A DNA stretch of 63,752 bases, filler included, from Hausera hauseri (lineage: Eukaryota), in the NCBI GenBank assembly GCA_046269625.1. It is 10 parts of 10 records of this genome, joined end to end, with 100 filler letters (N's around TTAATTAATTAA, not from the genome) between each part and the next. Parts side by side here need not be neighbours in the genome. Positions count along the whole stretch, not along the records: positions 53,717 to 63,752 come from JBJURY010249958.1; 9 more parts are not named here. The stretch is one strand, 5' to 3'. The position numbers and the translations under genes were made by a program. The notes under the pieces are model-generated. The model was not told where the DNA came from. It saw only the letters and a program-made list of their open reading frames with translations, and searched no databases. This document shows positions 17,732-63,752 of the stretch, piece by piece; the stretch's first letter is position 1; each line of letters begins with the position of its first letter.

Positions 17732-17732
17732 G

Positions 17733-22100: not shown

Positions 22101-22373
22101 TTCGGATTTCTTTGTGATTTGGTAGAGAACAACAATGCAGTAGTTATTGGACACAACAACAGTAATTTACCGCACATCATGAAGGCTATCGCATATTGTC
22201 TGATGAAGGATGGATTACCAGATACGAGTCCGGTTCATGGTAGATGTTTGAATATCGTCAAAATGATCCAGTCAGATGGTGATTGCTTCTCGTCCTGTTT
22301 CAACAGTCTTTTCAAGGAAGAACAAATTGCACTGCAGAAGGCAATCGAGAAATCGGTGAATTCATGTCAGTGA
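19110..22373 (+). pseudogene. IPO5: Importin-5 (karyopherin beta-3) intronless pseudogene
   Basis: HLAVETFVTLSE, MALDRMS, RVRYAACNAIGQL, LVLEQI, RGKTIEC, DDPQHSYMISAWTRICK, GLEDKAIACQMLVCYA, LLKFYFNDEVR, WLPIWEDVEE; no introns; at least 6 stops/frameshifts. Confidence 0.9.
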
Positions 22374-33531: not shown

Positions 33532-33733
33532 TTTAATTTTTCGAAATTATCATTTAACTTAACTGTATTGGCTGCTTTGATCATAATTCCAAAAGTGTAA
33601 TATTTATATCATATTTGTTAAAATTATATAAACGATATTGGTTGAAATTAATCGACATAGTTCCGTTTTCAAAAAAGTTAATTAGTGTATTCTTACTGTG
33701 GTACATTTTTAAAGTAAAATATTTATCCGATCA

Positions 33734-36373: not shown

Positions 36374-38961
36374 CTTAGAAACATCTGTTTAGATTATTAT
36401 GAAATATTTCCGTGTTACATATATTCTGCACCAGGATTAACATGACAAGCAGGAATGAAATTCACTGGTATGAACCTTGGTGAAGCTTGACACGGCTTAA
36501 AATATTACAAAGAAGAAATATACGATAAACTTGTATTTTTTGAAGAAGGAATAAGAGAAGGGGTTACAAGTGTGTTAGGAAATAGAAATATCAAATGTAG
36601 TAATTCATATACACAAGAGAAAGTTAACACCTATATGAAGTTGAATAATTATGAATTAGATGTTGTTATGAATGATTTGCACGACCAACATGAAAAAAGA
36701 AGAGTAACCCAAATTTTAAAATAGATTTGAGGAAGTACCCAGAACCAAATTATTAAATGTATTATTACGCAAATTCTTTGTATGCATCTGCAATGACATT
36801 AGAATTACCAACAGGTGAAATGGAATGGAGGGATGATTTAAATTACGTGCGAAGTTTGAAACGTAGTGATGGATATGTGTATGAAGTAGATATAAAATAT
36901 TCATATTCCATCAAAGAACAAACAAAATATTATCTATTTTGTCCAGAGAAGATTGAACCAAAAGAAGAATTGTTTAGTGCTTGTCAGAAACGCATAACAC
37001 CGCACAATTACAAAGCAGAAGAGAAACTAATTTTAACCCAATTTGATAAGAAATGCATAAAAGAAGGTAGAATGTTAAATTGGCACCTAGATCATGATAT
37101 TATTTTAGAAAAAGTTTATCGAAAATTAGTTTATGAAAAATCAAATTGGTTAAAACAATATATAGAATTCAACATTGAAAAACGAACTGAAGTAAAGAAG
37201 AATGGTGATGACTTTGGTGATAATTTCTTTAAACTATTAAATAATTCATTTTATGGAAAAACATTAGAAAATATTAGAAATAGACAAAATAATGAAATTG
37301 TGAGTAATAAAGAGAGATTTAGAAAATTATCAGGTAAACCAATTTTTAAACATTGTAAAATATTTGATGAGGAAGTTGTAGCAATTTACATGTTGAGAAA
37401 TTCAATATATATGGATAAATTTAATCATATCAGTTTTTCCATACTAGAATTAAGTAAATTAATGATGTACAGATTTATTTATGATGGCTTATATAGTATT
37501 TATACAACTGATAAATGTAAAATAGATTTTACTGGTAGTGTAACAGAGGACACGCCAATTATTTTAAAAAAGAATGGAAAAATAAGAATTAAAAAAATCT
37601 CTGAAATTTCAAACAAATGGAATTTATTGCTTGAAAAAGAATATCAAGAACCTAAACATTTAGAAATTTGGACAAGAAATGGTTGAAAGAAACTCATGAA
37701 AGTAATTAGACATAAAAGAAGTAAGAAAATATATAGGGTAAGAACAAAATTAGGATTTGTTGATGTAACAGAAGATCATTCATTATTAAATAAAAATAAC
37801 CAAGAACTAAAACCAGATCAATTAATAGTGAATGAAGCTAAATTATTACATAATAAAATATTCCTTAATGATAACAAAATTACATTGAAACAAATATTCG
37901 AAGATATTTATGAAAATGATGCCACTTTTATAGAAGACAAATGGGCATCTCTTTGAGGGATTTTTGGTGATAATTCTTCAGGAATCTATCGCTATCAAAG
38001 TGGAACAAAACACTGTTGTACATTTAATAACCAAAATTTATTCCTATTACATAAAATAAAGAAATATGTTAAAGAAATATTTAATAACGATTGTAAAATT
38101 TATGATACAATGAAAAGTTCTAATGTTTATAAATTAAATATTATTAAACCAAAATTTTTTACAGAATATTTTTCAAAAAATTATTACAATAAATTTCAAA
38201 AAACTAAACGTGTACCAGAATTTATTTTGAACGCAGATAATAATATTAGATATTGGTTTTTTGTAGGATTTTACGCTGCAGATGGAAATAAGCGTTTTAA
38301 TGAAAGGAATAAGACTATTGGATTTACCCAAAAAGGAAAAGAATGTTTTAGTGGATTGTATTATTTAGCAACATCAATAGGAATAAATATTGTTGTATCT
38401 GAAAGATGGGATAAACCCAATTGCTTTAGTGCTGCACAATGTAAGAAGGATATCACAACAGAAGTAAGAACAGTACGATTCCTAAGACAAAGAGAAGAAT
38501 ATGTTTACGATATAGAGACTGAGGATGGATCATTTAACTGTGGATTTCCATTGATTGTAAAAAATACTGATAGCTGTTTTGTTGAAATAAAGGATAAATT
38601 AGATAATATTAAGGAAAACTTAAAAGAATGGATAGTTCCAAATGTTTTAGGCAAAATTAAAGATGAATTAGAAGACGATTACATTACAGAAGCAGTGTTT
38701 TTAAAAGCAAAATGTTATGACTATGAAACAGTAAAAGACAAAAAAGTTCAAAGATGTAAGGGAATTAATAAATATAATAAACTAACAATTGAAGAATATA
38801 AAAATGTCTTATTTAATAATGAAACAATTTATAAAAGAAATTATGGATTAACGTCTGATCACCATAATATTCAATTATATAAACAAAAGAAAATTGCACT
38901 TGATCCATTTGATGATAAAAGATTTTTCATGAATTCTGTAAATAGTATTCCATTTGGATAA
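36374..38961 (+). pseudogene. Maverick/adintovirus-type pPolB C-terminal half, intein-containing
   Basis: YSAPGLT*QAG, FFEEGIREG, YANSLYASAM, KLLNNSFYGKTLENIRNR, SILELSK, split motif C (FTG|intein|TDSCF), GKIKDE, FLKAKCY, ALDPFDDKRF; 36757-38961 is one frame with two TGA stops. Confidence 0.9.
37537..38565 (+). mobile_element. Intein (~343 aa) with LAGLIDADG homing endonuclease at the Pol-c site
   Basis: Block A SVTEDTPIIL; block B VDVTEDHSLL (TxxH); endonuclease motifs L*GIFGD and FFVGFYAADG; block F YVYDIETEDGSF; ends IVKN followed by +1 Thr of TDS. Confidence 0.9.
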
Positions 38962-41050: not shown

Positions 41051-42316
41051 CTAGACGGCACTTTCGAATGAGCCCATTGCGTCAGTAGAGATGCCGGTAG
41101 TTTGTCGTAATTGCTCCATTCGTCCGCGTAAGTCCGCTTCCGAATCTACTTCATTTGAGGGTGATCGCGAGTCAATATAATAGGACGTACTGGCTTGTTC
41201 AGGAAATATTTCTACAATTTTATTTTCTCCGTTCGAATAATATCTTAGCCTAGTGGCTTCGGCTCTACACACTGGGCAGGTCGTCTTCCCATTCTTCAGG
41301 GTCCACGTTTCTAAACAGTATCGGCAGTACTTATGACTGCAGTCTTTGTTATCTAGGACTACGAATCCTTGGTATAGATCTGCATCACAAACAGGGCATT
41401 CTTCTTTTTCAGCCGCATCAATATCCACTAGGTTTTCATCCACTTCTATTCTTTCGAACACCAGTCCCTTTTTATCTTGATATAAATATCCATATAGTCT
41501 CTTTTGTTTGGGGTCTATCGAACTTTTTCTGGGGTCGTCAGATACTGCTACTAGGGTCCATTCGACTATTTCTTGTTTGTCCAGATCGGGAATTCCTGTC
41601 TTCTTGTATTGTCTTTTTAACTGAATTCTAACTTGAGTATCCACAGGAATTGTTAGTCGGTTAGTGCCACTTTTTGATTGAAATATGGGGGCTAGGTATC
41701 TGCCAATGGTGTGGTCCTCTTTAGCATAACCATTTCCGCTTACTATTCTTCTGGGAACAGTTGACACGTAAAATACGGCTTCCTTGATTTTCCCTTTACT
41801 GTAATATTCGGCCATAACGAGAATTCTTTTATACTCCTTTACTTCCCCGAATTCCGTAACCACAATCGGAATATCTTCGTCCCAGTTCTTCCTGAGAACA
41901 TTGACTTCTGATCTAATGACTTTGGATTTCGCGATTTCCAACGATTTTTCATTTTCCCTTTTCTTTTCTCGATTCGATAATGCTCCTTGATTGTCTTTGG
42001 ATTCTTCCGAATTTGAGTTGTCTAGAGCGGTTCTTTTACTAGTCTTGCTTCGCTTTTTGTGGATATAATCTAGGAAAGAGATTTTTATCTTGTGCTTCTT
42101 GGGAATTTCCATGTCGTCTGCTCTGGATCTCGGTTCTTCTCGGACCTTACTGGTTGATGGCTCCAACGAACTACTCAAGTTTCCCTTTTGATTATTCGGT
42201 ATTGTTATTCTAATTTTGTTTGTCCCTTGATTTTCTATTTTCGGATAACCAGGGTATTCACTAAATCCTTTTCGGAACTTCTGTATCAGAGATTTTGGGT
42301 TATTTTCAGACATCAT
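41051..42316 (-). CDS. C3HC4 RING-finger protein (putative E3 ligase), element accessory ORF
   Basis: CPVC-x15-CSHKYCRYC-x12-CPVCR; intact 421-aa ORF. Confidence 0.85.
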   Translation of the reverse strand: MMSENNPKSLIQKFRKGFSEYPGYPKIENQGTNKIRITIPNNQKGNLSSSLEPSTSKVREEPRSRADDMEIPKKHKIKISFLDYIHKKRSKTSKRTALDNSNSEESKDNQGALSNREKKRENEKSLEIAKSKVIRSEVNVLRKNWDEDIPIVVTEFGEVKEYKRILVMAEYYSKGKIKEAVFYVSTVPRRIVSGNGYAKEDHTIGRYLAPIFQSKSGTNRLTIPVDTQVRIQLKRQYKKTGIPDLDKQEIVEWTLVAVSDDPRKSSIDPKQKRLYGYLYQDKKGLVFERIEVDENLVDIDAAEKEECPVCDADLYQGFVVLDNKDCSHKYCRYCLETWTLKNGKTTCPVCRAEATRLRYYSNGENKIVEIFPEQASTSYYIDSRSPSNEVDSEADLRGRMEQLRQTTGISTDAMGSFESAV

Positions 42317-42331
42317 GTTCTGTATGGGATC

Positions 42332-43495
42332 TCATCGTAAATGGTCGTACACATTCTTGACACATTTTGTTCGTTGACTCGCGGTCATTAATTTCGGAAA
42401 TTTAAATCCTTCGCCGTTTATGGCTTCAAGCATCATTTTGAATTGTGATTCCTGTGATGCTGTTGTTGGAAGTAGGCATCCTCGCCTTCGCATTAGGGTG
42501 TTCTCCACTTGACTCACAATGGCTGGGTTCCGGCTTATTTCTCGTATGCCTGCTATGTATTCTGGTCTAATTTTTAATCGTTCTAACTCTTCATGTACCC
42601 GGAATCCAGTAATGATATATCCATACAAACAATGACTGATATTCTCTTGAATCTCCAGGAAATCTTTTTCCTTCTTGAGCTGTGGTTTTGTGATTCCAGT
42701 GACATCGGGAAAGGTATCTTTTATTCTAACTCTCGGCGCGATTATTCTGTTTAAAACTTCTTCTCCGTTTGTGTTTCTAATCGATATTTCGATCGGAAAA
42801 TACCATCCATCATCCTTTTCTCCGTAGTTTACTGCTAAAATTCGGGTATTCCGACCGTCTGGGACCAATCGGTATGATTCCCCACTTTGTTCAATTTCAT
42901 CTTCTGAAGGTTTTTGTATATAAATCAGTGGGGGTAATGGTTTCATCAATTTGGTTCTCCACGTCATTTCGATCATAATTTTGGTGGGAATGTCCGCAAT
43001 TCTAAATTCTAGGGCATAATCCATAAGACTAAAACAGCATAGTTCGTATGTGCTAAACTTCCACTGTTGCCCTTTTTGTGTACTCCAGGATTGTCCTACG
43101 ATCCTGTATTGAATTTCTCCATCAGCGACATGTATATACATTTGCTGATGCGTTGGTTCATAAGGAATTAGGTCTCTCAAATGGTACACTCGTACATCCT
43201 TAGGACTTCTCATGGCATATAGCCGAACCAATCTGTTCTCTTCTAGCCCCCATTTTAACCCATTAGGTATTTCACTTTCTCGGGTAAATTCCCGATAGTT
43301 GGTATTCTTCAGATTTTCTCCAATTTGTCGATACAGACTCTTTGATAAGGGTTTCAGGACCGTAACGTGCTGCTGTAGGAAACTGTCGATGTCGAAGCTG
43401 GTTGAGGAAATCTTCGCCTTCTCGGTCATACTTACTTTGCTGAAATAAAAATAGAGGTTAAGCCTAAGACAGATCATCGTTTTGAAACAAAACAT
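42332..43495 (-). CDS. Protein with C-terminal DEDDh exonuclease-like (ISG20/REX4-like) domain, catalytic residues apparently degenerate
   Basis: EISIRNTNGEEVLNRIIAPRVRIKD...VTGITKPQLKKEKDFLEIQENI...IITGF resembles the REX4/ISG20 core; likely start MTEK at 43429. Confidence 0.6.
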   Translation of the reverse strand: MFCFKTMICLRLNLYFYFSKVSMTEKAKISSTSFDIDSFLQQHVTVLKPLSKSLYRQIGENLKNTNYREFTRESEIPNGLKWGLEENRLVRLYAMRSPKDVRVYHLRDLIPYEPTHQQMYIHVADGEIQYRIVGQSWSTQKGQQWKFSTYELCCFSLMDYALEFRIADIPTKIMIEMTWRTKLMKPLPPLIYIQKPSEDEIEQSGESYRLVPDGRNTRILAVNYGEKDDGWYFPIEISIRNTNGEEVLNRIIAPRVRIKDTFPDVTGITKPQLKKEKDFLEIQENISHCLYGYIITGFRVHEELERLKIRPEYIAGIREISRNPAIVSQVENTLMRRRGCLLPTTASQESQFKMMLEAINGEGFKFPKLMTASQRTKCVKNVYDHLR

Positions 43496-43534
43496 TTTAT
43501 CTGTCTGATGATAGGATAACCCGATCAGTAATTG

Positions 43535-45037
43535 TCAGGTTATGGTATCATAAGGTTCGTCTTGGTACCCTTTTACCCAATAAACTCCCTTTCGATTTTT
43601 AACGCGTTTTTTATAATTTTTGGAGACTAGAAAAATCACCGCTATTATTACGATAAGAACGGAAATTGACACACTACATATAGTTATTATTGGTAGATTG
43701 TTCGGTTCGGTAGAACTTTGTGTCGTGAATACGTCTAGAGTACTGATATCATGATACGACATTGCTTCAATTTTATTACCGAGCGTTCGTACCGTAAACG
43801 TTTTAGGGTTTTTACCCTCTGCGGTCATTCTGATTATATACTCATGTTGCGGTCGTAACGACTTACACGCCGTTCCTAAACTATTCTTTTTCAAAATCAC
43901 AACTTGGTTAGTATGCAAGGTACGACACTCAATTTTGACGTCTTTATTTAATGTTTCTTCAGCATAGAATAGGATTCTATCATTTTTCACTAATATTTTG
44001 ACTGATATGCTTCCTGGCATTTCGCTCGCAGTAATAATCGTAATACTGCGAGTTGTGCTCGGCGTCGTGGATGGTTTTCCCGTAGTGGTCGGAAGTGGGA
44101 GTTCCCATATTCCATTTTTGGGACGATATCCTTTTAGGAAAATACTCCGTTCACCTGGATAGGTGTCGTACAAATCAAATTGTATTTGGTATTTTTGTCC
44201 TAATCGGACTACGCAGCATACAGTGGGACGTCTGTTGCCCAGTGAACAATATGCTGGTCTAGGAATAGAGGATTCTAACGGCGTAAGCTGGACGGAGATT
44301 TCCTTGTCCTCCGGTATGCCAAATTGGGTCTTGATCCTAATACATTGGTTCTTTAAGTCCTTGTGTATTCCGACAATGTTGTCATCCAAGATTCTATTAA
44401 TCGGGTTGGTGCTTCGAATTATTTCATTTGTTTTAGCTTCATTGGCGTCCCTTTGTTGTGGCATTCGTATCGTGAGCTCCGAAGCTATGTCGGCTTGAGC
44501 TCCAAATTTATAGGAATAGAACAGCTGAAAGCTATATCTATAGACTTTTCCGAAATCTAAATTACAGCATCTCCTGTAACGTCCATATGGAAAATCACAT
44601 ACTCTTGTATCGTCTCCGGCAGTTACAAATGTTATTTGAAATCCTATGTGGCTCGGAATCGGTTCGTCTGTTTCGAACCATGCACATGGTTTACTCCAGT
44701 CCATATCGCGTACTCTGAGTGTCCGTAAATTTCGAATATCCTTTTGTTTTTCAGCTTTGGCGCTCGATTTCACCGTGGGCATATACGAAGCAATTAACGA
44801 TAAGGCTAGGATTATCTGTACATAAGATATCGGTCTATTCACTATCGATGACGTCTTCTTTTCTTTAATTGTTTTACCGGAACGTAGATTGTAGCGTTTG
44901 TCTGGTCTTATCTCGGTTTTGACCACCCTTTGAATTGATGTGACTTCTTCTTTACCATTTTTGTTTATGTAAACTGTAGTCGGCGTAGTTTTCGTAACTT
45001 CGTAAGGTCCTCTACCTGTCCTGGTAAGCTTAAGAGA
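43535..45037 (-). CDS. Gypsy integrase C-terminus fused in-frame to an env-like type-I membrane protein (5'-truncated by contig end)
   Basis: Frame open from 45037: RGPYEV (GPY), RYNLRS, then hydrophobic ISYVQIILALSLIASY, Cys-containing ectodomain, T/S-rich stalk, TM IITICSVSISVLIVIIAVIFLV, basic stop-transfer and Tyr-containing tail. Confidence 0.75.
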   Translation of the reverse strand, partial: SLKLTRTGRGPYEVTKTTPTTVYINKNGKEEVTSIQRVVKTEIRPDKRYNLRSGKTIKEKKTSSIVNRPISYVQIILALSLIASYMPTVKSSAKAEKQKDIRNLRTLRVRDMDWSKPCAWFETDEPIPSHIGFQITFVTAGDDTRVCDFPYGRYRRCCNLDFGKVYRYSFQLFYSYKFGAQADIASELTIRMPQQRDANEAKTNEIIRSTNPINRILDDNIVGIHKDLKNQCIRIKTQFGIPEDKEISVQLTPLESSIPRPAYCSLGNRRPTVCCVVRLGQKYQIQFDLYDTYPGERSIFLKGYRPKNGIWELPLPTTTGKPSTTPSTTRSITIITASEMPGSISVKILVKNDRILFYAEETLNKDVKIECRTLHTNQVVILKKNSLGTACKSLRPQHEYIIRMTAEGKNPKTFTVRTLGNKIEAMSYHDISTLDVFTTQSSTEPNNLPIITICSVSISVLIVIIAVIFLVSKNYKKRVKNRKGVYWVKGYQDEPYDTIT

Positions 45038-45476: not shown

Positions 45477-48144
45477 TTAAAAGGGTGATGTTGCGTCAAC
45501 AGCAGAAATGTTGTGGATAAAAGCAGGGGAAAAACAAGGAATAGAAATCGTTAATAAAAGGCATATTAAAAAATGTTTGCCAGACGAATAGTACACAGTG
45601 ATAAATCTCACCTCATTGTGTACCAGTATCCGTTCAATGCTGTCCTTGGGATCTGTGAAACCATTCTTGTCCAACGATGGTATTCGAAAGAACTGTCGAA
45701 ACTTCGATAAAACATCTTCACAATTTCGAATGGGAAATACTTCGAATCCGTAGGCAATGCAAAGTTTTAAAAACCTTAATATATGTGAATTGGCCCGCGG
45801 TGATTTGCTGGACATTTCGACTGTAGCATAATGAATGTAATATAATGCAGCGATCAGTCCCAACTTTGTCGGCGGTACATCATTGGCATTTTCTTCATTG
45901 TTATAAGCCATATTTTCGTAATTTTCTAAATATGAAAGAAGCTTCGGTGTCACGATATTCCAAATATGAGGCAAATTCTTGTAGAGAATATAAACAAGCA
46001 CTTCAATGGTCTTGATTATACTCAACCATCTGTAGTTGGTTGATAAAGGAACTCCAGCAGGAACCAATAATCTAGCGATAAGAAATTGCGGCTGAGGAAT
46101 GTTGAATTGAGTGTTGTAGTCTATAATGTAATATATATATCATAGTATACATCGTTAGATTCTGGTACGTTATCATCAGCACTGTTGCTTCCATCAATAT
46201 CACTGGTTATAACTTTTGAAAATAAAGTATATACAGGGTTGCAAATGACATCAAACCATTGGTATGTGGCTAAATCCAATTGGGAGTTTTCCCTGTTTAT
46301 TAATTGAGTGTAGTTATCGAAACGGGTAGAATTCGGTTCAATGGATGGGGAAGGATTCCATGCTGTAATTAAAATACATTTTAGAATACTGGACGCAGTA
46401 TTAATTCGATCAGTCTTTTCCTTACTTTGCCGCTCGGTTCTATCAACTTTCAACTGTTGTGCAACAGTTTCAATTATATCCTTTAACGGTACGGTAAATG
46501 GATCCTCACAAAAGTCGTAGAATCTTATTCGAAACGTAGGATCTTTGGAATTGTTCGTGAATTGAAACTCAACATGATGCGACTCAAACAGATCATATCG
46601 ATTATACTTTTCCATCTTTCTTAAGACTTTAAGTGCGGTGCGATTTACTTGATACATATTTTGGATACATATTTTGATATAAATAATCCGAAACATGTTG
46701 TTAATGCATAAATCTAACGTTCTTAAACGCTGGGTTATTATGTTGCATGATAAAACATAAACGAGCGGTTCCATCAATAGCAATAAATGAGGTAGTAATG
46801 TACTAAGTCTCACGGGGGTGATAATACAAAGTTCACTGAGTAAATCCCGTACTTGATTGGTATGCAGTGATCTTGACAAAGCGCTCAAACTATTCAACAT
46901 ATGGTGCAGCAAAGGCAAAAACTGCCTATATAGTCTTTCGTGAGCTCCACCACCAAATGAATGAAATAAATAGCGTAAAAGGCAAATGAAAATACTGGGA
47001 TCTTTTGCGTAAAGAGAATATTTTATACAGTCCAGTATAATACGTCTAAGATGCATCTCTAAAATATTTTCGAAGCAAGCCAAATTTCTATGAATGGAAT
47101 TGAAAATTAACTTCAGCAACTGAATATGTAAGTTGGCCTCGGGTGTACCTTCCCCGATAATCTCTATGTTATCAAGTACGATAATATTAGATTGGCGAGT
47201 ATAGCCGAATTTGTTCCCTGTTCTTCTTGAGAACTGCTCAAAATAATTTGGGATAACTCTAATCCAATATTTCTGTAGAAATACTGGTTGTAGTGATAAT
47301 TTCTCCACTGCGCTGACTGATTCTGTATTGATTTCTATAAAATTGCTGTGAATGTCATCCTTCATCTTTTCACACTTAAAAGAAGAGTGATGACCAAGTC
47401 GACATCCATGAAATGCTGCATTCAATTTCTTGAAAAATATCAACAGAGCTTTTTGCAGCAATTTCCCGGAATCAAGAGGTGTTGCAACTGCATAAGCGAT
47501 TTCCTTTGGTCTGTACAAAAGTTCGAGATAGTATATATCCCACTCACGAATTGCATATGGTGAAACAGTTAGACATTCCTTTTCTTTGTCAGGATAGCCA
47601 TCAGACAAACACAATGGGTTGCCTTCAAATGAAAAGTGACTAAGACTATTTGACCTTTTTGTCGAATTGATGTAAATGAGTTGTTCATAAATCTGTTGCT
47701 AATTGACAACTGCGAAAACATTGAAGATACGTGATTATTGTGATTAGAATTGGATAAAGTGGATGGTCGCCGATATGTGAAAATCCCGGTAATGGATTGG
47801 AAGCACTACACACATCGTTTGTTGAAGGCTTTCCAGTGAACACCATAAACTGGAAGGGGTTGTGGTTTGCACGACTAGACATTACCTCTGCCCGCAAGAC
47901 GATGAAATGACTTCCATGTCAATGGCCCATCTATCTTTTAACTGGACTCCAATATTCTAGTGTTGCTGACAGCTTCTTGAAGTAATGGTTGTAGCGTCAT
48001 TAATAATCTAATTTGATCGTTATGATTTTGTGGAATCGGAACGTCTTTTTTAGAATTAAAAATTGTACTGACTAATTGCCTATCACGTTCGTTCGTTAAC
48101 CGGTTAATTCTTGAATCTGAAAACTGAACTATGTTCGAGAGCAT
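45477..48144 (-). pseudogene. TRRAP: TRRAP/Tra1 internal fragment, intronless and disrupted
   Basis: LLKLIFNSI, LLRYLFHSFGGGAHERLYRQFLPLL, ELCIITPVRLSTLLPHLLLLMEPLV match the TRRAP HEAT region; broken into several ORFs. Confidence 0.8.
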
Positions 48145-51244: not shown

Positions 51245-53937
51245 CTTCCGTTAGAAATATAATTATGACACCAAGTATTTTAAATCTCTGCATAATGTGG
51301 TGGTTACTTGATTGACACAACAATGCTTACGTAATGCTTGCACACACTTTGTAAAACTTGCATTTGTAAGTATATTGAAATCAACCGTTATTGTCCGCTC
51401 TGTCAGTGTCTAATTCAAGAAAGCCGATTGGGTAAAGGTAGTACGAAACCAGATTTAGTTTTACAAAAGGCCATTTATAAACTCGTTCCACATATTATGA
51501 AATGAGAAATGAATAAAATCCGCGACTTTCTCTCGAACAACGATGATACTGAAAGTGTTTCCTCAACAGAAGAAGTGTGCCTTTTACAGTCCGATGGTAA
51601 ATTGCACTGGAATTCTCGGCGACTTAATTTTGATGATTTTGAACTTTCGGTAATCGGTGCAAAGTCATTCGGTAACAATTCGAAAAAGAACTGTTCCAAA
51701 CCCTTACAATCGATCTTCAGTCGACTAACCGTGACATTGTCGAGCAGCAAACACAACACTTCAAGACACAGATCATTCCACGATTTCCGTAATTTCATTT
51801 GGTCTTCATTAATGTCTATAATTGATTTTGAAACTTTATAATCCGTTGGATATTCGACAAGAAAAATTAAATGCCAATTCGAAATTTGACGATTTAATTT
51901 GGCAAATTTTCCCAACATTGTCCGAAAGCAAGTCGATCTTAATAACGGTATCGACATAAAGCGAACCTAAAACATCGAAGAACGTGTTGAAATCATCAAG
52001 CGAAATAAGATCCAGCGGTGAATCCGTCAGAAACATAACGGGCACACAAAGAAAATCGACAAAAGGTTGCAACTGTAATTTACCGTTAGTCGAATGATGT
52101 AAACAAAATCCAATCATAAATTGTGTCGAGATGAGTTTAAATGGGAATTATTTTGTTGCTGTTACAGACAATAATTTGGTTTGCATATAGTCGATACCTG
52201 CTTGATTTGTTGTTTTTGACCATTTGTACATATTTCCAGAAAACAACATTGTACATAATTCTTATTCCTTTGACTTTAGTCTTTATTCCATTATAACATC
52301 AACAACAGGAAATGGCACAACTCTACTTTGTCGTGATATTGGTCAAACTGATAACATTTTATGGACTAAGTATTCGTATGATTTCTCAATTGTTTCTAAC
52401 GTATCATTCATCGAATACAAAGATGCAAACTTAATTTTAAAGAAAACTACAGTTTCTTGTTCGTATTACCAATGCATTATTGTACAGAAAGACTACGAAA
52501 TTTGGGAAAGTGTTTAAAGTCATATCAGCACCAAAAACCACTGATCCAATTATCGAGTCAACATCGCAACAAATAAAAGATGTCCTTTTAAGATGTGTTA
52601 AAATTTCTAACTGAAATTACAAACTGAATTATTTTTTCAACACATTCAGATCCGGCCGAGTACTATGAGTGTCTTAATAGTATTTCTCACATGCCTTACA
52701 AAATTGTTATGTATAAAGTTTTCAACAGTTCTCCAGTGCAGTGTTTTATATGGCTTCCATTAGTGCATTAGAAATAAAAGCGATGGTTGTGTTGCCGTAT
52801 GTCGTTATCAATGTTGCCGGATTTGACGACCTTTTATTTGTAGTTTCTCGTAACATTATAAAGGATAGAAAAAATTGTTCTAATAAATGATAAATTTTTT
52901 CAATTGAATTCAAATTTTCCAGCCATTTTGTAAGAATTTATCTTTTGATTTGATTTTGTCACTATCAATTGAAATTTATATATGATTCATTGTTTTTTTC
53001 CTTCGATTTATCGATACTACGAATAGTCTCAAGAAAACAATTAATCCAAAAGGTATGCTGAATGATGCTATCAACAATTTCTATCCCCATTATCAGCGAT
53101 ACACTCAAGGAAAATTTCTATTGACAACAGATTTATTTCAAACGATGCTGTCTTTGGTTTACCTTTTATCGCGAAGCGAATGATACGACCTCCTGATACT
53201 GCTTGTACAAACAGCACGTTAAACAATAAATGGTGTCAGAAAAATTTGTACCATTCGGATATGCCCACAAAGATAATGCTCTTATTTCCATCCGTTTTAA
53301 ATTCTAAAAATTATAATAATAACAAATATACATTCTACCCCTATTTGCAAACGGGTGCTAATGTTCTGTACGTCGATACCGGCTACCTTTTCAGTACGGC
53401 TGGCGGCGGCTCTTCGTTGGCTTTAACCGGATGGGCATCTGTTTCCTCCCTACCAGGTTTACTAACGGCACCAAATAAAATGCAGATTTCCGTCAGTTTG
53501 AAACCGTCGAATATGAAATTTTCCCAATTCCGCGGTACCATTTCGGGAATAATCAAATGTGTGGACATTTGTAAGACGGGGGAATTTGAGGTGACATTGA
53601 GACCGATTGAGGAAAANNNNNNNNNNNNNNNNNNNNNNNNNNNNNNNNNNNNNNNNNNNNTTAATTAATTAANNNNNNNNNNNNNNNNNNNNNNNNNNNN
53701 NNNNNNNNNNNNNNNNTCTTCCCGGATAGGACTTTGTTCCGGGGTGAGAATAGTGAAACCCATTTGGCCCCAATGCTCTCTGATTCGTCCTCTACTCCCA
53801 TTGGCTTACTTCCTTCCCCCCGATGACGTGTCCTCTTCCCATTCGTCAGTTTCACGTCCCCGCGATGACGTGTTCTCCTCCTATTGGCTTCCTTCCTTCC
53901 CTGGGGGGTTTGGGGAGAACTCCTTCCTTCCAACTAC

Positions 53938-55070
53938 TATAATGGTCAATCTACAACGAACAGACATGGCAGGCTTAGTCATATACCTGATTGAGGTCGA
54001 CCTCAAAATACCAGATAAGCTGCATAAAGTTTTGGACGATTTACCGGTCACACCATTTAACCAATATCCTCCAGGTTCAAAAGTGTAGAAACTGCTCATG
54101 ACGCATGAACCGAAGCTGAATTACGTGGTACATTACGCGTCTGCTACAGTTCTACATGCAGCTTCTTGTACGCGTCACACGGCTGTATCGTGCAATCCGA
54201 TTTGCTCAGGCTCCCATATTCAAGGCCTACAAAGATGGCAATTTGGAGAAACAAGCCGCAGCTTGTACAAAATTCGAAAAGGACTACTACAAGCTGAAAA
54301 ACAACTGCATGTACGGAAAAACAGTGGCGAATCTGAAACAACGGCTCAATGTGCGTCTATGTAACTCGGAAAAGCGGCTGGTTACGTATACCAGCAAGGA
54401 ACAGTTTTGGCGGTCAATGCACATTGCCGATGGATTGGGTGCGGTACTGTTAAACAGGGAAGAAGTCGTTCTTGACCGGCCAAGTTACATCTGACAAGTG
54501 GTATTGGACATGAGCAAGTAGATCGACTTGGCACGTTACCAGCAAATTTTTGACGGCTGCAATATAGACATAATTGCCGGTGGCATAGACAGTTTTTTCC
54601 GGCGGCTGAAAAACGTAAATCGCGAACAGCTACAGCAGCAAATGCAGTCAGATGGATTAGTGGACACGTTCAACTACTCACCGGATCATCCGTTGTACAG
54701 GAGCACTATCACCAATAAAATCGGTTGCTTCAAGGATAAAAGTGAAGGTCGTGTCCGGTATCGGGCATGGATATTCCTACGCCCAAAGTGATACAGTTTT
54801 CTGATGGACTGTGGACCGAACATGCGGGCAAAAGTCGTCCAGCTGAGACAGACGGAAATCGGCCGCGGTGATTATCGCCGCATATATGAAGCGGCAGCAG
54901 CAGAAGGAGGACAATTAGTGGCTGTTGTGTCTCAAACGATCTTCAAATGAATTGAGAACCAGATGTATACAACAACTAATGAGAATGTCGCTTTGTCATG
55001 TAACGATGACAAGCAAAAGTGGGTGGAACGAAATAACAGTTGGGCATATGGACATTGGAGGTTGAAATAA
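53938..55070 (+). pseudogene. Maverick pPolB C-terminal fragment (paralog of 12576-16004)
   Basis: YLIEVDL, YYKLKNNCMYGKTV, IAGGIDSFF, IGCFKDKS, FLRPK, NDDK, WAYGHWR. Confidence 0.88.
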
Positions 55071-55349
55071 AACGCGTTCGGTGGTGTCAGATCAAATCAG
55101 ATACAGGCAATTCAATCTAGTCTGGATATTGAGACAATTATTTTTTGTACATTGTTTTATTTCAATATTCATAATGTACTTTGTTTAGTGTCTTTTGTGT
55201 TTTGTTTTCGTTTACTTACTTAACCTATTATTATTAAGTAAGATAGAATAAAAGTAAAACAATAACCTTGTATGAGAAAACAAAATATGTAACACGAATA
55301 CATTTATTTATTGATCGTAGAAAAACTAATATCACAAAAATACACAAAG

Positions 55350-55734
55350 TAAATCAGTTGTTCGATGTTAAATACGTCGTCAATCACAACTCGGCAAAGT
55401 GTGAATGTAATTGTGTAAGTTTTTGTCTGTCAATTTGATTTTTAATGTAAAATAATGTATTTTCAATGTCAAAACGATCACAAATCTTTCCCATAATATA
55501 CATCACACATAAAATTGAATCGAATTTATACCAGTGAAGTCCATGACGATGTCAAAAGAGAAATCTGTTTATAATTTTCGCCTTTTCCGTCAGGTCATTT
55601 CGCACTACACCGGGCTTGAATACGTATACAACTGGTTTGAAAATGTTACCAACGTCCACAATGCATAAGTCCTTTATTATGTACCGGGCATTATCATCTT
55701 GGAAAGCTTCAATATCTATAAATCCTGTCGCCAT
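55350..55734 (-). pseudogene. Small DEDD-exonuclease-like Maverick accessory ORF
   Basis: GFIDIEAFQ...YIIKDLCIVD...YVFKP; broken downstream. Confidence 0.5.
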
Positions 55735-55845
55735 TACTTATGTATAAAATTACACAAATAAAACAACTAACTATTATTATTATTATCATCATTGAACATA
55801 GGTGGTTTTGTCCATATCACTAAAGCAAAATTCTTTGCGTTCATT

Positions 55846-56269
55846 TCATGTTGTTATTGCTTCATTGACACAAAACAATCCCCATTGTTCCGGTGACATT
55901 ACATTAAATTCCGCCCCTTCACATCGAAGAAAAACGATTTGTGCGATTGCACTGCCTTTCGAAAAAGCATATGTTTCTCCGGATTGGTTTGCCAGAAACA
56001 CCTTAATTTCACCACGAAAGTCTGAATTAATGACACCGCCCACAACCGTCAGTCCGAGCTTTGCCAGTCCGCTTTTCGATAAAAGTTTGTCGTAGTAACC
56101 GGGTGAAATCGCCAATCGAATCTCAGTTGTTTTGAATTTTGATTGTTCTGTCCGAAATTGTCGTATTGACGTGGGAAAAAACGTCGTAGCTTGCACTGTT
56201 TGCTGTAAAACGTATTGATACAAAGGCATTTTTGTCTGTTAAGATAATCTTTACGTCATTCATCATCAT
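55846..56269 (-). pseudogene. dut: dUTPase, frameshifted
   Basis: SASYDVFS (motif 1), KSGLA (motif 2), GGVINSDFRGEIKV (motif 3), AIAQIVF (motif 4). Confidence 0.88.
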
Positions 56270-57139
56270 TATTCTTATACCAATATTAAAATTACACATA
56301 TATTTATACTGGTTAATTGGGTTAGTGAAAGAAGAACGTAAAACAAAACAACAACAACGAGAATATTTATGGATAATTAACATTTGCTTCAGCTACCCGC
56401 CAAATCTGGCTCTTGATACAACCTTTTCTTTGTATCCTTGCAATTCAATATTCAGTCGACAATTTGAATCATCAACGGTACATTAGACATTTCGTGACCA
56501 ACAAAATCAAACAATTTCATTTTCTGAGCCGGTAAAACGACAGATTGCTGTTGCACAGTCGTTTCGTTCAACTTTAAATCTACGCTTAATTAATGCAGAG
56601 CATCAGAAAGTTTATCCAAATTTTCTCCCGACAGACATTTTACACGATAGCTGTACTTGGGTGCGCATAGAAGCACAGGATCATTTAATAAAATCAGTCG
56701 GGCGTTTGCAGAAAATGCATTTCCTACTTGCGAAAGATTCGTTTTGGTAAAAATGTCTGTGTTTGGCGCGACGGTTTTGATTTTAGTTTACATATTTCAA
56801 TAATTGCATTTTGCCTTTTTTAACGTCAATTTTCCTGCTGCTGATTTCTGAGCAAGTTCCTTTTTCCTTTCCAGACAATCAACATCATAATCTTCCTTCA
56901 TACAATCGCCATTAGAAGGCTTTTCTAATTGTTGGACAGATTTTGTTTTCGTTTCCCGAAATTTGACATTAGAATTGTCCTTTTGTAGCCAAGCAACCAA
57001 TCATCATTCTCACAACCACCATCATCATCATCATTGAGTAGAAAGGTTTTGTCGTCGTCTTCCATGGCAGTATTGTCTGAATGAGTATAGGAATGGTATT
57101 TATAGTTTGCTGTTGTTGTATAGAGTACAATATTTTGAT

Positions 57140-57568
57140 TCACTAAAGCATTTATGTGGTTTCTAATTTGATTAATAAGCGGTTCATAGTCCACGGTCTG
57201 CATACCGAGTACAACAATTTTTGCACTGCTAAACACATTGACACAAAGTGGGCAAAACAATGTCTGTCTCAGTGCAGGAAACATTTCGGGTTCATACGTA
57301 CATTTATCAGTGGCCATTGCTAATTTGTACAGATTGATTGTTTGGTAGTCTAACTGAATTGTTACCGTTATTGATTAAATTTGGTCAATGACAATTCCAA
57401 ATTGTAGCAGTTTACTGTTGTCAGCTGTGACTGGTTTGCTACAACCCATAATACGACACATTCCCGATTGAAATATGTTGAATGTAAACTCCGGTGGTCA
57501 CTTGAGGACATACTGCCTCGGTTTCCATTAATTAAAAGGTAGTGTGTTAATGTCACACTCAGTAACAT
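57140..57568 (-). pseudogene. TATA-binding-protein-like gene inside the Maverick
   Basis: Repeat 1 IFQSGMCRIMG; repeat 2 INLYKLA...YEPEMFPAL...VNVFSSAKIVVLG, matching TBP YEPELFPGL/IFxSGKxVxTG. Confidence 0.7.
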
Positions 57569-57703
57569 GTCCGCAATAGTTGATATTACCAAACATTAAG
57601 GAATCAGTGTTTATATTATAGCTACTTATGTGCGTGTAACACGATTATAAACAAATCATGTGGTTAGGAAAGGTTGTATTATTATAATTCTTACTATTAT
57701 TAG

Positions 57704-58354
57704 ATGAAGTTGCACAAGGATGCTATTTTCCAGATTGTAGGCCTTAGTGGAAGTTGCAAAACACACTTTGTGTGTAAACTATTGCAGAAGTACCGTAACA
57801 TGTTGCATTCACCCTGGTACAATCACATTTACTGGCATCAGGGTGTTGGTGATAATGGTGAGTCCGGTGTGATACATCGAGAATTTTGTAAATTAAAATC
57901 CATAGCGGCAAGTGTTGGATTTGATAAGAACTGGTCAGAGAGATTACGCAACGACGACGTTATTATATGATTTATTTTAGGAAGCCACGAAACAATCGGA
58001 ATTCAACAACCTGTTCACGAAGATTAAACGGCACCGTGGTGTGACGGTCATTTTTATTACTCAAAACATGTTCCATTAGGGCGGAAAACATCGAACAAGA
58101 AATTTAAACGTACACTATTTGGTGTGTTCAAAAATCCCCATGATCCGACTATCATTGATTATGTTTCACGACAAGCATTACCTTACAACCGAGACTACTT
58201 GATAGATGCATATCATGATGATACTACCGAGCCATACAGATACTTGTTCACTGACTTTAGGCAACAGTGTGTCGATGACATGCGTGTACGAACAGACATG
58301 TTCAATCAGAAAGGTGTATGTGTCTATAAACAAATTCGAAAATCGACGACATGA
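57704..58354 (+). pseudogene. A32/FtsK-like genome packaging ATPase
   Basis: Walker A GLSGSCKT, VIIYDLF (Walker B-like), HRGVTVIFITQNMF, RTRNLNVHYLV, FKNPHD; frameshifted. Confidence 0.88.
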
Positions 58355-58561
58355 TTGAGATAAAATGAAGAATTTCCGAAAAACAATTGTTAAACGTGAA
58401 CCTACCAAGTGGGTGTTCGGAAAGAAACGTGTCTCAAAACGAACCGCTACAGTCAAGAGATTAATAAATTCTGTGCTTTGAACAAAAACAACTAGACGCA
58501 AATTACCGTCACAGTAACAACGGTTATAAACAACGATGTCTCGGCATCAATACGTCCAAAA

Positions 58562-58860
58562 ATGCGATTCAAATGTAATCAGCCGTACTTTATTGCTTTG
58601 CTCAAGGCACCTACGAGACATAAGCAAAACATGCTGCGATCATTCTCACAATTTGTAGTAGACGATTTGATGGCAATTTTATACAATATCTTTGTGGGTC
58701 ATGTTGACATTGGTAGTGGGAAGAGGAATTTACTAAAGTATAGAAAAGGACTCATTGGCCTTTCCAACGCTTCTAGTAAATGACTGAAACGAGAGGTCAT
58801 GTATCAGCAAGATGGGGGATTCCTTGGTGCAATTCTACCGATTGTCATTTAATTACTGGG
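58562..58860 (+). pseudogene. Small basic pX-like core protein (paralog of 16469)
   Basis: MRFKCNQPYFIALLKA...YQQDGGFLG with internal stop. Confidence 0.6.
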
Positions 58861-59029
58861 TGGACCCATTGGTTCTGCAACAACATGATAGTATAAACAA
58901 TGACGGTAAGTATATAATGATTCGGCGATATGGGTGCATGGTTTTCATCTTTCTGTCCCAGTTTACCGAATTTTTCATTAACGTTTCTTTCAAATTGTTG
59001 TAATTCTAACTAAAACGACACCAACAACG

Positions 59030-60065
59030 GCAACGCTAGGCGACGTGTGGTTCGACCCGCCTCATCCCGTCGGGTATACTGTCGTCGACAAGCTGGCAAA
59101 GACTGTAAAATCGACTCGGCAACATACCCAACGTTGGCTCGGGAAACAGTTAGCATACGCCTAAATAAACCGATAAGAATGCGGTTTCCAACTCGTGTAT
59201 ACCGTGATGCCGGTTTAAATAATGCATGGTAAATGGATCTGATAGAAATGATTCCGTACGCCAGCAACAACGATGGGTATCGGTGCGTACTGACATTCGT
59301 TGATGTGTTTAGTCGTTTTGCACGCGAAATTGCCGTGAAATCTAAATCCGGTAAAGAGATTGTCGACGCTGTTCAGACACTGATACAAAAACAACAACAG
59401 TCGAAGCATTTATAAACGGATTTGGGTAATGATTCCTACAACGCCCACGTTGCAGCGGTCTTGAAATGGTTCGGCGTAAACCACTACTAGGTGTTTTTCC
59501 AATACAAGGCTGCACTTGTTGAACAATTTAATCGAATATTGCGCGGTCGCCTAAACAAATTCTTTACGAAACAAGGCAACAAACGCTGTGTACATGTACT
59601 GCCGGATATTATTCATGCATACAATCATTCGACACATCGTAGCATCAATGGAATACGGCCGGTAGATGTAATCGATGATTTGGACATATGATTTTATCAA
59701 AGCTGAACAGAAAGACAGGCAATTAAACGTCCAAAATACAAAATCGGTACTTACATACGTATTTCGAAAATAAAAACAACGCCATTCATTAAGAATTTCA
59801 ATCAGAACTGGAGCGACTAGGTATTACGCATTTCGGTAATCAACACAACACAAACACCTGTCATGTACGTTTTAGAGGATGAAAACGGTTAGGAAATATG
59901 CGGTAAATTCTACGAACAGGAACTGCAAGTACTACCGGAAAAATCTGATGTGTATCGTATTCAGAAAATTCTACATTCACGTGGCAAAGGTTTGAATAAA
60001 CAATATCTCCTCAAGTGGCATGGATACACTACACCGAGTTGGATTTTTGCATCGCAGATAGAGTG
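59030..60065 (+). pseudogene. Maverick integrase with chromodomain
   Basis: MDLIEM, LTFVDVFSRFA, KAALVEQFNR, YNHSTHRSI, FYEQELQ, YLLKWHGY. Confidence 0.88.
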
Positions 60066-61094
60066 ATGGGCATTTATCTGGTACTTGATAATAACAGATC
60101 ATTATCACAACATGACGACAATGACAATACCGCTAAACAGTTTACCATACACTTGGACCAAGCGGTCGATTTACGCCACGGAGCCTGGACGTGGCTTTGA
60201 TGGTATTCACATTTACATTTTCACCAATGACAATACGCCAGAACAGTGGCATTTACTTTACCCGTCAAGAAACGTACCCTATTTCAAGTCGTTTGAGGAC
60301 AATCCGACACAATAACCGATATACTCTTTGCAATTATTCGCAACAACATTTCTCGGTTTATGCTTACTTTTCAAACCACCTTATGAAACGAATGCATCGA
60401 AATCAAATTAAAATGCATGTTAAATCTATAACTGATTTTCAGTCAGCCAATGTACACTAAAAACGCCTACCGCTAGGTGGACATGTTATAATTGGTGAGA
60501 AATTGGACCTTTCATCCAATACAGAATCCGATATTAAAGTAAAGTGGACTAAGTCAAAATCAATATTCCGTTCATATATTATATCACACGATTTTCTAAT
60601 GGAAACGGAACTGGAATTGTGATAACGTCAAGAAAACGGCTACATTAGCTGTAAAGACATGTAAAATAAACGCAGATGGTCATATTTCCCTAACACTACA
60701 TGACAATGTAACATATTTTGCATTTGATGAATTATTGGCTCAAAATCTAGGTTTCTCAAAACGCGAATTCTATCAAACCGTTGTTGGACAATCTATTGTT
60801 GCCAAATACAAACCGCAACTTTATGAAGCATTTCATAGAATCAACATTTTAACGGACTTAACCAAATCCGTACTCGTTCGTGGAGAACGTAAGCAACTAC
60901 TGGCTTCTATCGAACTGGATTCTAACACGTACAAAACATTGGGTGAAACTGTTCGCGTTAATATGCTCAGTCACATGTATTTACCATTGTCACACAATAT
61001 TGTGCACAGTATTTCCGTGTATATGCTTGATGAATTTTGGGAACCCATTAAATTTCTGTTTTCGGCAACGACACATTTGACGTTACATTTTTGA
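60065..61094 (+). pseudogene. Minor capsid (penton-like) protein 1
   Basis: MGIYLVL...NTAKQFTIHL...GAW; C-terminus LLASI...MYLPLSHN...THLTLHF. Confidence 0.7.
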
Positions 61095-61140
61095 CGTTGT
61101 CAATAATAAACGAACTGCAATCATCATTGATATCATTGTG

Positions 61141-62162
61141 AATATGAGTATTTACATGGTGTTGCCGATAACTCCTCCGAACAATTCAGCCAGTGAATAC
61201 GTTGTAGATTGGAAAAATCCTCTGAATTTATCTGGAAAATGGGAAATTCCACTGACGGAATTTAACTTTCCCTACGTACCGGTGACATTGAAAGGTAGTA
61301 TGAAAATAACGTACAACAAGACTGTTATTGAAACCAAAACACATTCTTGTTCCCTGACACTTATTGACAATAAAATAATAGTTGGAGAATCGGTTATTCT
61401 CAGGACCAGTACAAATTGCGGTTTATACGGCAAGATGGGTGTTTTTATTTTAGCGGAAAACTTACATTTCGTGGTAGATTTTGAATTTACTGTCATTTTG
61501 AGTCCTCTGTTACGGCGCAAAAATTTGGATTTAAAAATACAAAGTACAACAGTAAAGATATTAAAAGTGAATATGCAGTTGCCCCAAGATTAAGTCCCAT
61601 ATATTACCAGACAACGGTGAAATTTACCTATACAGCCCCAAGGGTGTCAACGTCATACGTATCGATTGACGACAATGTCTATTGCGAATCTGTAGCACAT
61701 CTCCGTCAACACTTTTCTTCAAATCAAAAGTACAAGGAGATATTTAAAGTTTGAGAGTCAGATGCAAGTAGGTACATTAAATTTTAACAGGCTAAGCATA
61801 TTGTCGACATTTCATTGGATAAAGCTTTGGACATGGCAATGGATATTGTGAAACAGCGGTTGGAGGCGAAGACGGCGGCGGCACATGTTGCAACACTTAA
61901 ACTCACACTGAAAACTGGATTAAGTCAAATGTACATTTACGTGAGTGTCACCGAACAAATTTTTATCGGTGGAGTACGTGTACCGCTACTCCGTGCAGTT
62001 TATCTGGAAAGCAGCAAGTATATTGCTGGCGACAATGTCACTGTCAAGCTCGATACAAACAATGTTGAAGTGAAAATCCGACGTGATGCGGGCTACGTTA
62101 TTGAATTTCCGTACGGTACCGCAACTTCTCTAACTCTTCATTTCCGTCGAAACCACGATTGA
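61141..62162 (+). pseudogene. Minor capsid (penton-like) protein 2
   Basis: MSIYMVLP..NNSASEYVVDWKNPLNLSGKWEIPLTEF; MYIYVS...VPLLRAV...SLTLHFRR. Confidence 0.72.
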
Positions 62163-62344
62163 TTCTGAAATCGTTTCCATTTACAGTAAACCCCAGCAAA
62201 GCGGTGAACTGTAGCATTTCGTTGGTAAACAGTATGGCTCTGGATAATTGCGTAAAATTCGCTGGCAGTGGCTTCAGAAAACGACATAGAGCATCATCGA
62301 CTTCATCAAGTATAAACAAACGTCGTCGTGGTATGATTTTCGAT

Positions 62345-63204
62345 TGGTCGACAGAAAAATCGCATCTGCAAAATCTCATTTGTGTATATTTTACAAAGGC
62401 GCACCACAAGTTGTTATTGACAATGTGGCATTTGAAGAAATCTACCCTGTTGATTCGGTTTCAACGGACGATAATATTGACATTCAATTTAACATTATGG
62501 TATTGGACAATGGATTCCATGATTCGACTCAAACGCAGCGACAATGTCTTTTGTTCGAAAACTCCAGTTGCAAATCTCAAACCCATACTTAAAATTACCG
62601 AGGCACGATTGTACGTACGTTGTGTAAAGGTAAACCATCTGTGCTCATGGGACATTGATTGGGCTTGGAAATACAAAATGCCTGTTACCCATTACAACGC
62701 AGAGAACTCGTCTTTTACACCATACCCAAAGGTTCAACAACGTTTTGCAAGGACACACTGATTGGAGACATGCGATTGCCGAAATTTGTACTCGATACAT
62801 TTCAAACGATTGTTCAACAAACGGCAGTTATACCCCCGATTCGGAAACGTTTACCCATAGCAATATGAATTACAACTGTTTGACTAAAAATGTGGATTTC
62901 GTTGACACACTAGCAGGATTTCGAGAGCGGCAATTATGTTTGCACATATATGCAATCTATCATGCGCAAAATGGGTTTGCTGAACAAAAATATCAACGAT
63001 AGTATATTAATGGATTTGTTCAAGTCCACTTATCCATTCTGCACTTCTGTCCTGGCTCCAAAATATAACGCTGAACAGATTCAACCACCTCAGCAGGGAA
63101 ACCTTCACCTTGCTAAAGCATTTCAGCAGTCTACTGCGATGTACATTTACGGTGTATTTAATGCCGAGGTTGAAATAACGAAAAACAGAACCGTCGTTGT
63201 ATAA
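62345..63204 (+). pseudogene. Major capsid (double jelly-roll) protein remnant with internal deletions
   Basis: EEIYPVDS...IQFNI, LKITEARLYVRCVKV, MRLPKFV, YGVFNAEVEITKNRTV; position between penton and protease. Confidence 0.68.
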
Positions 63205-63237
63205 ATAAAACATTCTTCTTCTTACTCCTCTTTGAAC

Positions 63238-63646
63238 CATGAAGTAATTTATTACCATTAATACTATTATAACTACATCACGTTTTACGTTTACCTAAAC
63301 TGAACTCTGTCACTATGGAAAATTTCTCTTTGGTGTAAAATTCCGCAGTGTGTTTCCGCTGGACTGTGTGCCGCGTGACTTACGACAAAATGGTGGCGGA
63401 TGTTTCATCGTCAATACACATAGTTCGTCGCTACCGGACGAACATTGGATTGCGGTGTACGAACATCCGACCGTCGTCAAGGTATTCGATCCGCTCGGGT
63501 TTTATTATCCGTCATCTTCAGTTTCTCAAATTGAAAGACAATCATATTACCGTGTTGAATATAATCGACTTCATTGTCAGCATCCACTTACGGTATTGAG
63601 TGGACATTACTGCTTCTTGTGGCGTACATTACAGACATTATTGTGA
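63238..63646 (+). pseudogene. Adenain-like cysteine protease
   Basis: VFPLD, FIVNTHSSSLPDEHWIAVY, FDPLG, CQHPLTVLSGHYC (catalytic Cys position reads Ser). Confidence 0.85.
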
Positions 63647-63752
63647 ACGTATTCTGCATTTTTGAATGGATAGACAGATAGACTGTTTTTGTGATTTTAA
63701 AATATACATCTTATTACTTTGCTGTTGCTGTTGTTGTATCATTTCAATATCT

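Follow-up and report, generated by a model that had tools for sequence, protein, structure and literature searches.

The window, by which we mean the entire 63,752-nucleotide stretch of Hausera hauseri DNA analysed, consists of N-joined contigs, the last of which (53717-63752) carries a TBP-like gene and is the interior of a decayed Maverick/adintovirus-type element. Along this contig, the gene order is a polymerase B end, an antisense block, the packaging ATPase, a small conserved ORF, the integrase, capsid-like genes, and the protease, and most of these genes contain stops or frame changes:

53960..55085, plus strand: protein-primed DNA polymerase B (pPolB), C-terminal part, disrupted; the contig begins at 53717
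55363..55734, minus strand: exonuclease-like accessory gene, disrupted; matches a family present in 27/80 related loci (the best 80 of 164 matches)
55849..56255, minus strand: dUTPase, split over two frames (Pfam E 7e-17)
56464..56691, minus strand: SSB-like gene, weak remnant (iE 1.2e-4 to a family with a T7 gp2.5-like fold in intact relatives)
57120..57596, minus strand: TBP-like pseudogene of about 150 codons, one frame with three in-frame stops, short type
57608..57615, minus strand: TATAAACA box, 19 nt ahead of the TBP start codon; atypical, outside -50 to -31
57646..57653, plus strand: TATAAACA box, putative late promoter, 58 nt upstream of the ATPase ATG
57704..58354, plus strand: packaging ATPase (A32/FtsK-like), with stops and a frame change; relatives match Pox_A32
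58559..58873, plus strand: small conserved Polinton ORF; TATAAACA at 58525
59027..60060, plus strand: rve integrase, disrupted, 7 stops in the main segment; TATAAACA at 58892
60066..62153, plus strand: minor-capsid-like (penton family) gene, twice in tandem; read from position, no Pfam match
62359..63201, plus strand: major capsid protein family gene, disrupted and partly deleted; read from size and position, no Pfam match; TATAAACA at 62311
63299..63628, plus strand: adenain-like maturation protease (Pfam and family match)

The pPolB and rve integrase, both disrupted, were found in the same element as the packaging ATPase and adenain protease, in agreement with the Maverick/adintovirus assignment made in an earlier, sequence-only reading of this DNA and with the genes shared by adintoviruses, Mavericks, and Polintons (pPolB, rve integrase, FtsK/A32 ATPase, adenain, and capsid-like genes) in the sections of Starrett et al. 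2021 (PMC8502044) on these viruses. The polymerase N-terminus, where an OTU domain would lie, falls beyond the contig; two intact relatives (L054 and L056) match PF03175, the polymerase type that corresponds to the Alpha class in the usage of that paper. The capsid-like gene families are conserved and have the size and position expected for double and single jelly-roll proteins; they have no Pfam match and are known from sequence alone. The dUTPase and the exonuclease-like ORF do lie in the antisense block, as had been proposed, and the SSB-like remnant, missing from that list, lies there too. The exonuclease-like ORF drew no match in the Pfam scan; from its motifs we take it to be a DEDD exonuclease, and the small Polinton ORF is presumably PZ-like. 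Neither terminal inverted repeats nor a target-site duplication were found in the contig, which ends inside the element, or in four long related loci.

Host-type genes on other contigs of the window point, by their database matches, to an animal host, the element's own host flanks lying outside the contig. The best matches of an importin-5 gene were animal, with flatworms first among the named ones, at 46 to 49% identity; this gene (19142-22373) is split over several frames. Tra1/TRRAP-like (46121-47365) and Sec63-domain (45477-45911) fragments likewise look like broken gene copies. A second related element, also decayed, occupies 12062-18287 and is 75 to 87% identical to the first. It has no counterpart of the whole block from the exonuclease to the ATPase; a single TATAAAC box survives at 16792, and an altered one lies near 16410.

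The TBP-like frame opens at an ATG at 57596 on the minus strand and is intronless, with no frameshift. Homology to TBP extends to about 57147-57120, and the open frame continues to a stop at 56925. Both TBP repeats lie within this one frame, interrupted by in-frame stops at codons 23, 33, and 74 (57528-57530, 57498-57500, and 57375-57377), which bears out the intronless, disrupted ORF with two repeats described before. The span given for it, 57140..57568, marks a real gene, of which the 57568 end belongs to another frame. Searched with X in place of the three stops, the window protein matched Pfam TBP (PF00352) at 43.2 bits (E 3.5e-11; curated cut-off 22.9). Its best PDB match was TBP 1mp9 (E 2.6e-12), and the PDB sequences matched, 35 in all, were exclusively TBP chains or TBP fusions. 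On a family profile made without the window sequence the protein scored 151 bits, while neither the reversed sequence nor any of 500 shuffles exceeded 13.2. The C-terminal repeat was the sole part aligned by Pfam and phmmer; for the N-terminal repeat, support comes from the family alignment, from hhalign, and from the fold of an intact relative, P0003. Both TFIIB-binding glutamates are present. The window copy is nonetheless dead like its neighbours and unable to make protein: it is a broken copy of a shortened TBP gene that is intact in many related elements.

Fifteen database proteins matched the window protein at 35 to 68% identity, and an exhaustive profile search returned 60 clusters at E up to 1e-30. 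For genomic context, we scrutinized metagenome loci, taking the best 80 of 164 matches. A Polinton core gene (ATPase, integrase, minor or major capsid-like gene, polymerase, or protease) was found in 40 of these 80, including 20/23 of the loci of at least 4 kb, and the other 40 comprised 36 with recurrent accessory families and four short ones without any. An independent search with the ATPase only gave three contigs, one of which has a TBP gene directly before the ATPase. Most family members have 145 to 185 residues, and 73/79 locus ORFs cover both lobes without a stop. Median dN/dS was 0.14 in 28 close pairs (at least 75% identity), consistent with purifying selection; the median of 0.41 over 170 pairs includes distant, saturated pairs. 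Two longer proteins, P0196 (388 aa) and P0138 (365 aa), contain the family TBP domain and are possible fusions. Polinton-type contigs were also found binned in three bacterial GTDB MAGs (L083, L084, and L085), probably through contamination.

A quick maximum-likelihood tree of 76 family rows (73 of 150 full-length members plus three) and 25 eukaryotic, archaeal, and other TBPs placed the family on one side of a branch with an SH-aLRT of 100. The tree, which has no TRF2/TBPL1 rows, names no donor. The window protein groups with P0002 and P0003, deep inside the family, and the short-type group that contains it nests within the family as a whole. These data bear directly on whether the window gene might be a one-off host TBP or TRF retrocopy, an idea that its intronless, broken state and the missing block of the second element could suggest. 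The window protein, however, is 67 to 68% identical to intact proteins and 35 to 48% to other members of the same family, its neighbours are all similarly decayed, and the gap in the second copy, from which the ATPase has gone too, looks like an internal deletion. We consider a retrocopy hardly credible; judged by its context and tree position, the TBP-like gene is an element-borne family.

At the window locus the TBP-like gene lies head-to-head with the packaging ATPase, whose ATG at 57704 is separated from it by 107 nt, exactly as first noticed. The expectation that the same arrangement recurs in multiple copies did not hold: ATPase and TBP are on the same strand in 25/28 loci (among the best 80 of 164), the exceptions being L023 and L027, divergent with genes between, and L076, convergent. 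Neighbour genes of TBP vary from branch to branch. One of them is a compact gp2.5-like SSB gene, beside the TBP gene in 19/80 loci (best 80 of 164; e.g., L013:1788-2135), whose intact relatives (family C3) match the T7 gp2.5-like fold with Z 8.0 to 8.4 and rmsd 2.6 to 2.8 over 101 to 105 aligned residues. This fold ruled out C3 as a second TBP-like or TFIIB-like factor. Families C11, C13, and C15 occupy the place of the SSB-like gene in other branches and may share its fold. No Pfam match to TFIIB or RNA polymerase was found in 130 of 412 neighbouring ORFs, a set covering every cluster and singleton, from incomplete loci and at a sensitivity that a very divergent TFIIB could escape. With terminal repeats absent, none of the loci is a proven complete element, and the sequenced part could lack a partner gene. 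In IMG/VR, no family member was found, the giant-virus-type TBP there matching at 30% only, and queries with the capsid, the ATPase, or a second polymerase of the window (below) returned no relatives. The capsid-like protein had no match in a phage collection.

The AlphaFold model of P0003, which is 68% identical to the window protein, has a pLDDT of 96.6 and superposes on TBP with Z 13.2 and rmsd 2.5 over 146 aligned residues (TM 0.59 to 0.72 against TBPs), giving a two-lobed saddle with both beta-sheets. The TBP fold first suggested by the repeat signatures is thus found by Pfam, by the match to 1mp9, and by model superposition. Both C-lobe helices are present in the model, and there is no helix of at least four residues before residue 85, i.e., none in the N-lobe. 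As modelled, the window's branch has lost the N-lobe helices H1 and H2. The linker is 24 residues in the short branch vs. 34 in cellular TBP; of 186 nonredundant members, 126 have the short linker and 60 keep a longer one. In cellular TBP, an N-lobe basic patch binds TFIIA, TAF1, Mot1, and Brf (Ravarani et al. 2020, PMC7221094, in the portion on these contacts). The model has no H2 helix to carry this patch for TFIIA, TAF1, Mot1, and Brf1, and the linker next to it is shortened.

Residue conservation was counted in 124 proteins collected without peptide patterns. For numbering we assume that of yeast TBP, mapped via the canonical TBP P0104; the register agrees with hhalign from about position 116 onward. 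In the alignment, the stirrup glutamates that contact TFIIB are kept (E186 in 108/124 and E188 in 120/124) within a C-lobe stirrup of the form E-P-E-x-F, and so are three intercalating phenylalanines (F116 in 109/109, F190 in 122/124, and F207 in 120/120). The rest of the DNA face is changed: V122 to R (109/110), T124 to M (124/124), N159 to S or T (124/124), L205 to N (120/121), and F99 to P (99/103), the last in a loosely aligned stretch. Of the canonical TATA-reading surface of four Phe with Asn, Thr, Val, and Leu, three Phe are therefore kept and five positions are replaced family-wide. With cellular TBP and its paralogues (PF00352; 1ytb, 1cdw, and 1mp9), the family shares the two-lobed saddle, the E-P-E-x-F stirrup, and the three intercalating Phe. 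In contrast, it is only 20 to 28% identical to them, forms a separate branch of the tree, lacks H1 and H2 in the window's branch, and carries near-invariant, mostly polar substitutions on the DNA face.

An unbiased word count over 286 upstream regions returned ATAAAC 141 times vs. 23 expected and TATAAAC 89 times vs. 6.6. Among 67 core genes, 55 have the motif YATAAAC no more than 150 nt ahead of them (24/26 for the ATPase, 12/15 for the integrase, 9/14 and 8/9 for the minor and major capsid-like genes, and 2/3 for the protease), and none has its reverse complement there. Nearly half of the hits (65/139) start at -50 to -31, where the distribution peaks. The exonuclease-like (16/20) and PLA2 (10/12) genes also have the box, whereas most zinc-finger genes do not (3/10 with it), and it precedes just 1/61 TBP genes, 2/17 SSB-like genes, and 1/3 polymerase genes. 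A canonical TATAWAWR was found before 25/61 TBP genes and TCAKT before 23/60 (vs. 6/68); we take TCAKT to be initiator-like. In the window contig, TATAAACA occurs seven times against a shuffle mean of 0.9 and a maximum of 4 in 300, at sites before the ATPase, two small ORFs, the integrase, and the major capsid-like gene, with one after the exonuclease-like gene. The site 19 nt before the window's own TBP gene runs contrary to the family pattern; gene starts in this decayed copy are approximate. An origin of the motif as a stop-codon artefact was rejected, as the TAA stop of the previous gene overlaps at most 41/265 sites. The box is found in both main TBP branches. Its first position is more often C beside long-type TBPs (25/60 vs. 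10/49, p 0.02, not independent), and co-variation of motif and protein was set aside as evidence for being too weak.

Six TBP-less Polinton-like contigs have the box before 0/13 labelled core genes and 4/79 ORFs. These controls are few, incomplete (no TBP gene in the sequenced part), and mostly from distant lineages, so gene and motif may simply be co-inherited. The TBP gene could be a functional passenger with an unrelated role, and YATAAAC a lineage trait whose reader is a host factor or a different protein of the element; in the controls, gene and lineage are confounded, and some loci do encode zinc-finger and KilA-N DNA-binding proteins. These are patchy, however (12/80 and 8/80, respectively, of the best 80 of 164 loci), the box spans both main branches, and the motif is TATA-shaped, and we regard a passenger role as very improbable.

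If the N-lobe of TBP reads the 3' half of the TATA box, the most altered lobe of the family protein would face the base that is altered in YATAAAC. A C at position 7 falls outside the cellular TATA consensus YWTAWADN, and step 7/8 of the box is where a Phe pair of TBP inserts, as reported in PMC1935006. There is also a crystal structure of TBP bound to a TATA variant that has C at -25 (PDB 1qn3 entry), and host TBP might hence read the box itself. If so, the element TBP could be a decoy or repressor that soaks up TFIIB or occupies promoters, damping host or early transcription. The TFIIB stirrup is the best-kept surface of the family, the central Asn/Thr pairs have been replaced along with one intercalating Phe, and a heavily substituted TBP can switch its DNA target altogether, as described for Giardia in PMC12209930; these points, like the 1qn3 structure, would suit such a role. 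The new DNA-face residues are nevertheless near-invariant, with no drift, and the box is uniform over distant branches, avoids the TBP gene, and is missing in TBP-less elements. On balance we judge a decoy unlikely.

The reading we favour, with a probability of roughly 0.62, is that the window holds a decayed copy of a Maverick-encoded, trimmed TBP that probably served as a late-gene switch acting via YATAAAC, host TFIIB, and Pol II. An ordinary TATA/initiator-type promoter, served by host TBP and Pol II, would first drive the TBP gene, and the replication genes (SSB and polymerase) are probably also on host-type promoters. The family protein would then bind YATAAAC(A), with C at position 7, through a saddle with a re-tooled DNA face, and its intact C-terminal stirrup would recruit host TFIIB and thereby, as proposed, Pol II, so that the genes for capsid, protease, integrase, and packaging ATPase are switched on. 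Without N-lobe helices, the protein would escape the host regulators that dock there (TFIIA, TAF1, Mot1, and Brf1). The analysis itself shows the homology, the fold, the family membership, the element context, the residue pattern, and the motif distribution; we assigned genes to early and late classes by their function alone, and we infer DNA binding, the TFIIB partner, and timing from the conserved residues and the box. In the sequence-only reading, this lineage was said to use a basal factor of its own to steer host Pol II. The TFIIB glutamates, the neighbours without a TFIIB or polymerase match, and the promoter-like box lend that claim indirect support, and as to mechanism it stays, like ours, inferential.

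The same protein could instead be a box-specific DNA-binding factor working without standard TFIIB and Pol II, be it with Brf1/Brf2 and Pol III, with the polymerase of a helper virus, or during replication or packaging. The glutamate contacted by TFIIB also serves Brf1 and Brf2 (PMC7221094, as far as its account of this surface goes), and the TBP gene often adjoins the SSB-like gene, as in the 19/80 loci above. Against this, the box sits about 30 to 50 nt before protein-coding starts on the coding strand, like a Pol II TATA box; Brf1 and Brf2 also need the N-lobe basic patch, which the window's branch has lost (PMC7221094, same account); and the neighbours change between branches. We hold such a role to be decidedly unlikely.

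Taken as a late-gene switch, the family protein resembles two groups of viral factors. TBPs of Nucleocytoviricota and other large dsDNA viruses are likewise virus-encoded and two-lobed and have lost the N-lobe regulatory signature, in the analysis of Ravarani et al. 2020 (PMC7221094). The two TBP glutamates discussed there bind TFIIB and Brf1/2; the first stirrup glutamate is retained in about 40% of other viral TBPs, and nearly all of those viruses encode their own TFIIB. Unlike these TBPs, which mostly pair with a viral TFIIB, the Maverick family keeps the glutamates in 87 to 97%, and no TFIIB was found beside it. The terms Polinton, Maverick, and adinto are absent from the readable text of four supplements of that paper. 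The second group comprises the TBP mimics of beta- and gamma-herpesviruses (KSHV ORF24 and EBV BcRF1), in which a TBP-like protein directs host Pol II to late genes in a nuclear DNA virus that lacks a polymerase of its own (PMC7498053, in the portion on late transcription). ORF24 is large, acts as one of six proteins in a complex, and has a separate domain that contacts the Pol II CTD directly (PMC7498053, same portion), whereas the Maverick protein consists of just the core, about 150 residues long, lacks a constant partner of viral origin, and is predicted to use TFIIB. With short members and changing neighbours, the family shows neither an extra CTD-binding domain nor a multi-protein complex of the herpesvirus type.

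That TBP lies outside the usual Polinton gene set, as the sequence-only reading held, needs qualification: a TBP-labelled gene is already drawn on at least one MELD-virus map (Starrett et al. 2021, PMC8502044). There, TBP is a map label in the section on non-animal datasets, and the gene so labelled is a possible member of the present family. Neither the accessory-gene section nor the text of Suppl. Fig. S2 mentions TBP, and the sections on these viruses contain no family, structure, or promoter analysis of it. In the openly accessible literature, mention of the TBP family or the motif was limited to the label that Starrett et al. and their preprint give in the legend of Fig. 5. The gene in the window is genuine, an element-borne TBP variant whose proposed cognate promoter can be tested.

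The wider proposition, that a broad animal Maverick lineage runs a one-protein late switch in which a minimal TBP with a lost regulatory lobe reads YATAAAC and uses host TFIIB and Pol II, seems to us slightly better than an even bet. If true, no smaller viral basal-transcription system would be known, and the switch would be evidence for an autonomous early/late virion programme of Mavericks and a natural altered-specificity TBP-promoter pair. These data bear on how Mavericks and Polintons, which have no RNA polymerase, time their capsid and packaging genes, and on any dependence on a helper virus. A self-encoded TBP with a matching box argues for an autonomous nuclear programme, parallel to herpesvirus late transcription and with far fewer parts. 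The family may also serve as a natural experiment on which TBP surfaces are dispensable and how TATA specificity changes. The window copy itself is a fossil, valuable as a pointer to this family.

Other contigs of the window hold further virus-like genes. A second, different protein-primed polymerase B (Pfam DNA_pol_B_2) lies at 36757-38961 on the plus strand and is interrupted by an insert with LAGLIDADG/homing-endonuclease matches (E about 0.002), which from its motifs we presume to be an intein. The same contig encodes an intronless, 1148-codon Strawberry notch (SBNO)-like ORF at 30100-33546 on the minus strand, which may be either element cargo or a gene of the host. At 41051-44782, also on the minus strand, three intronless ORFs of about 400 aa are tightly packed in a virus-like manner; one has a RING finger and two have no Pfam family, one of these two with an apparent C-terminal membrane helix.
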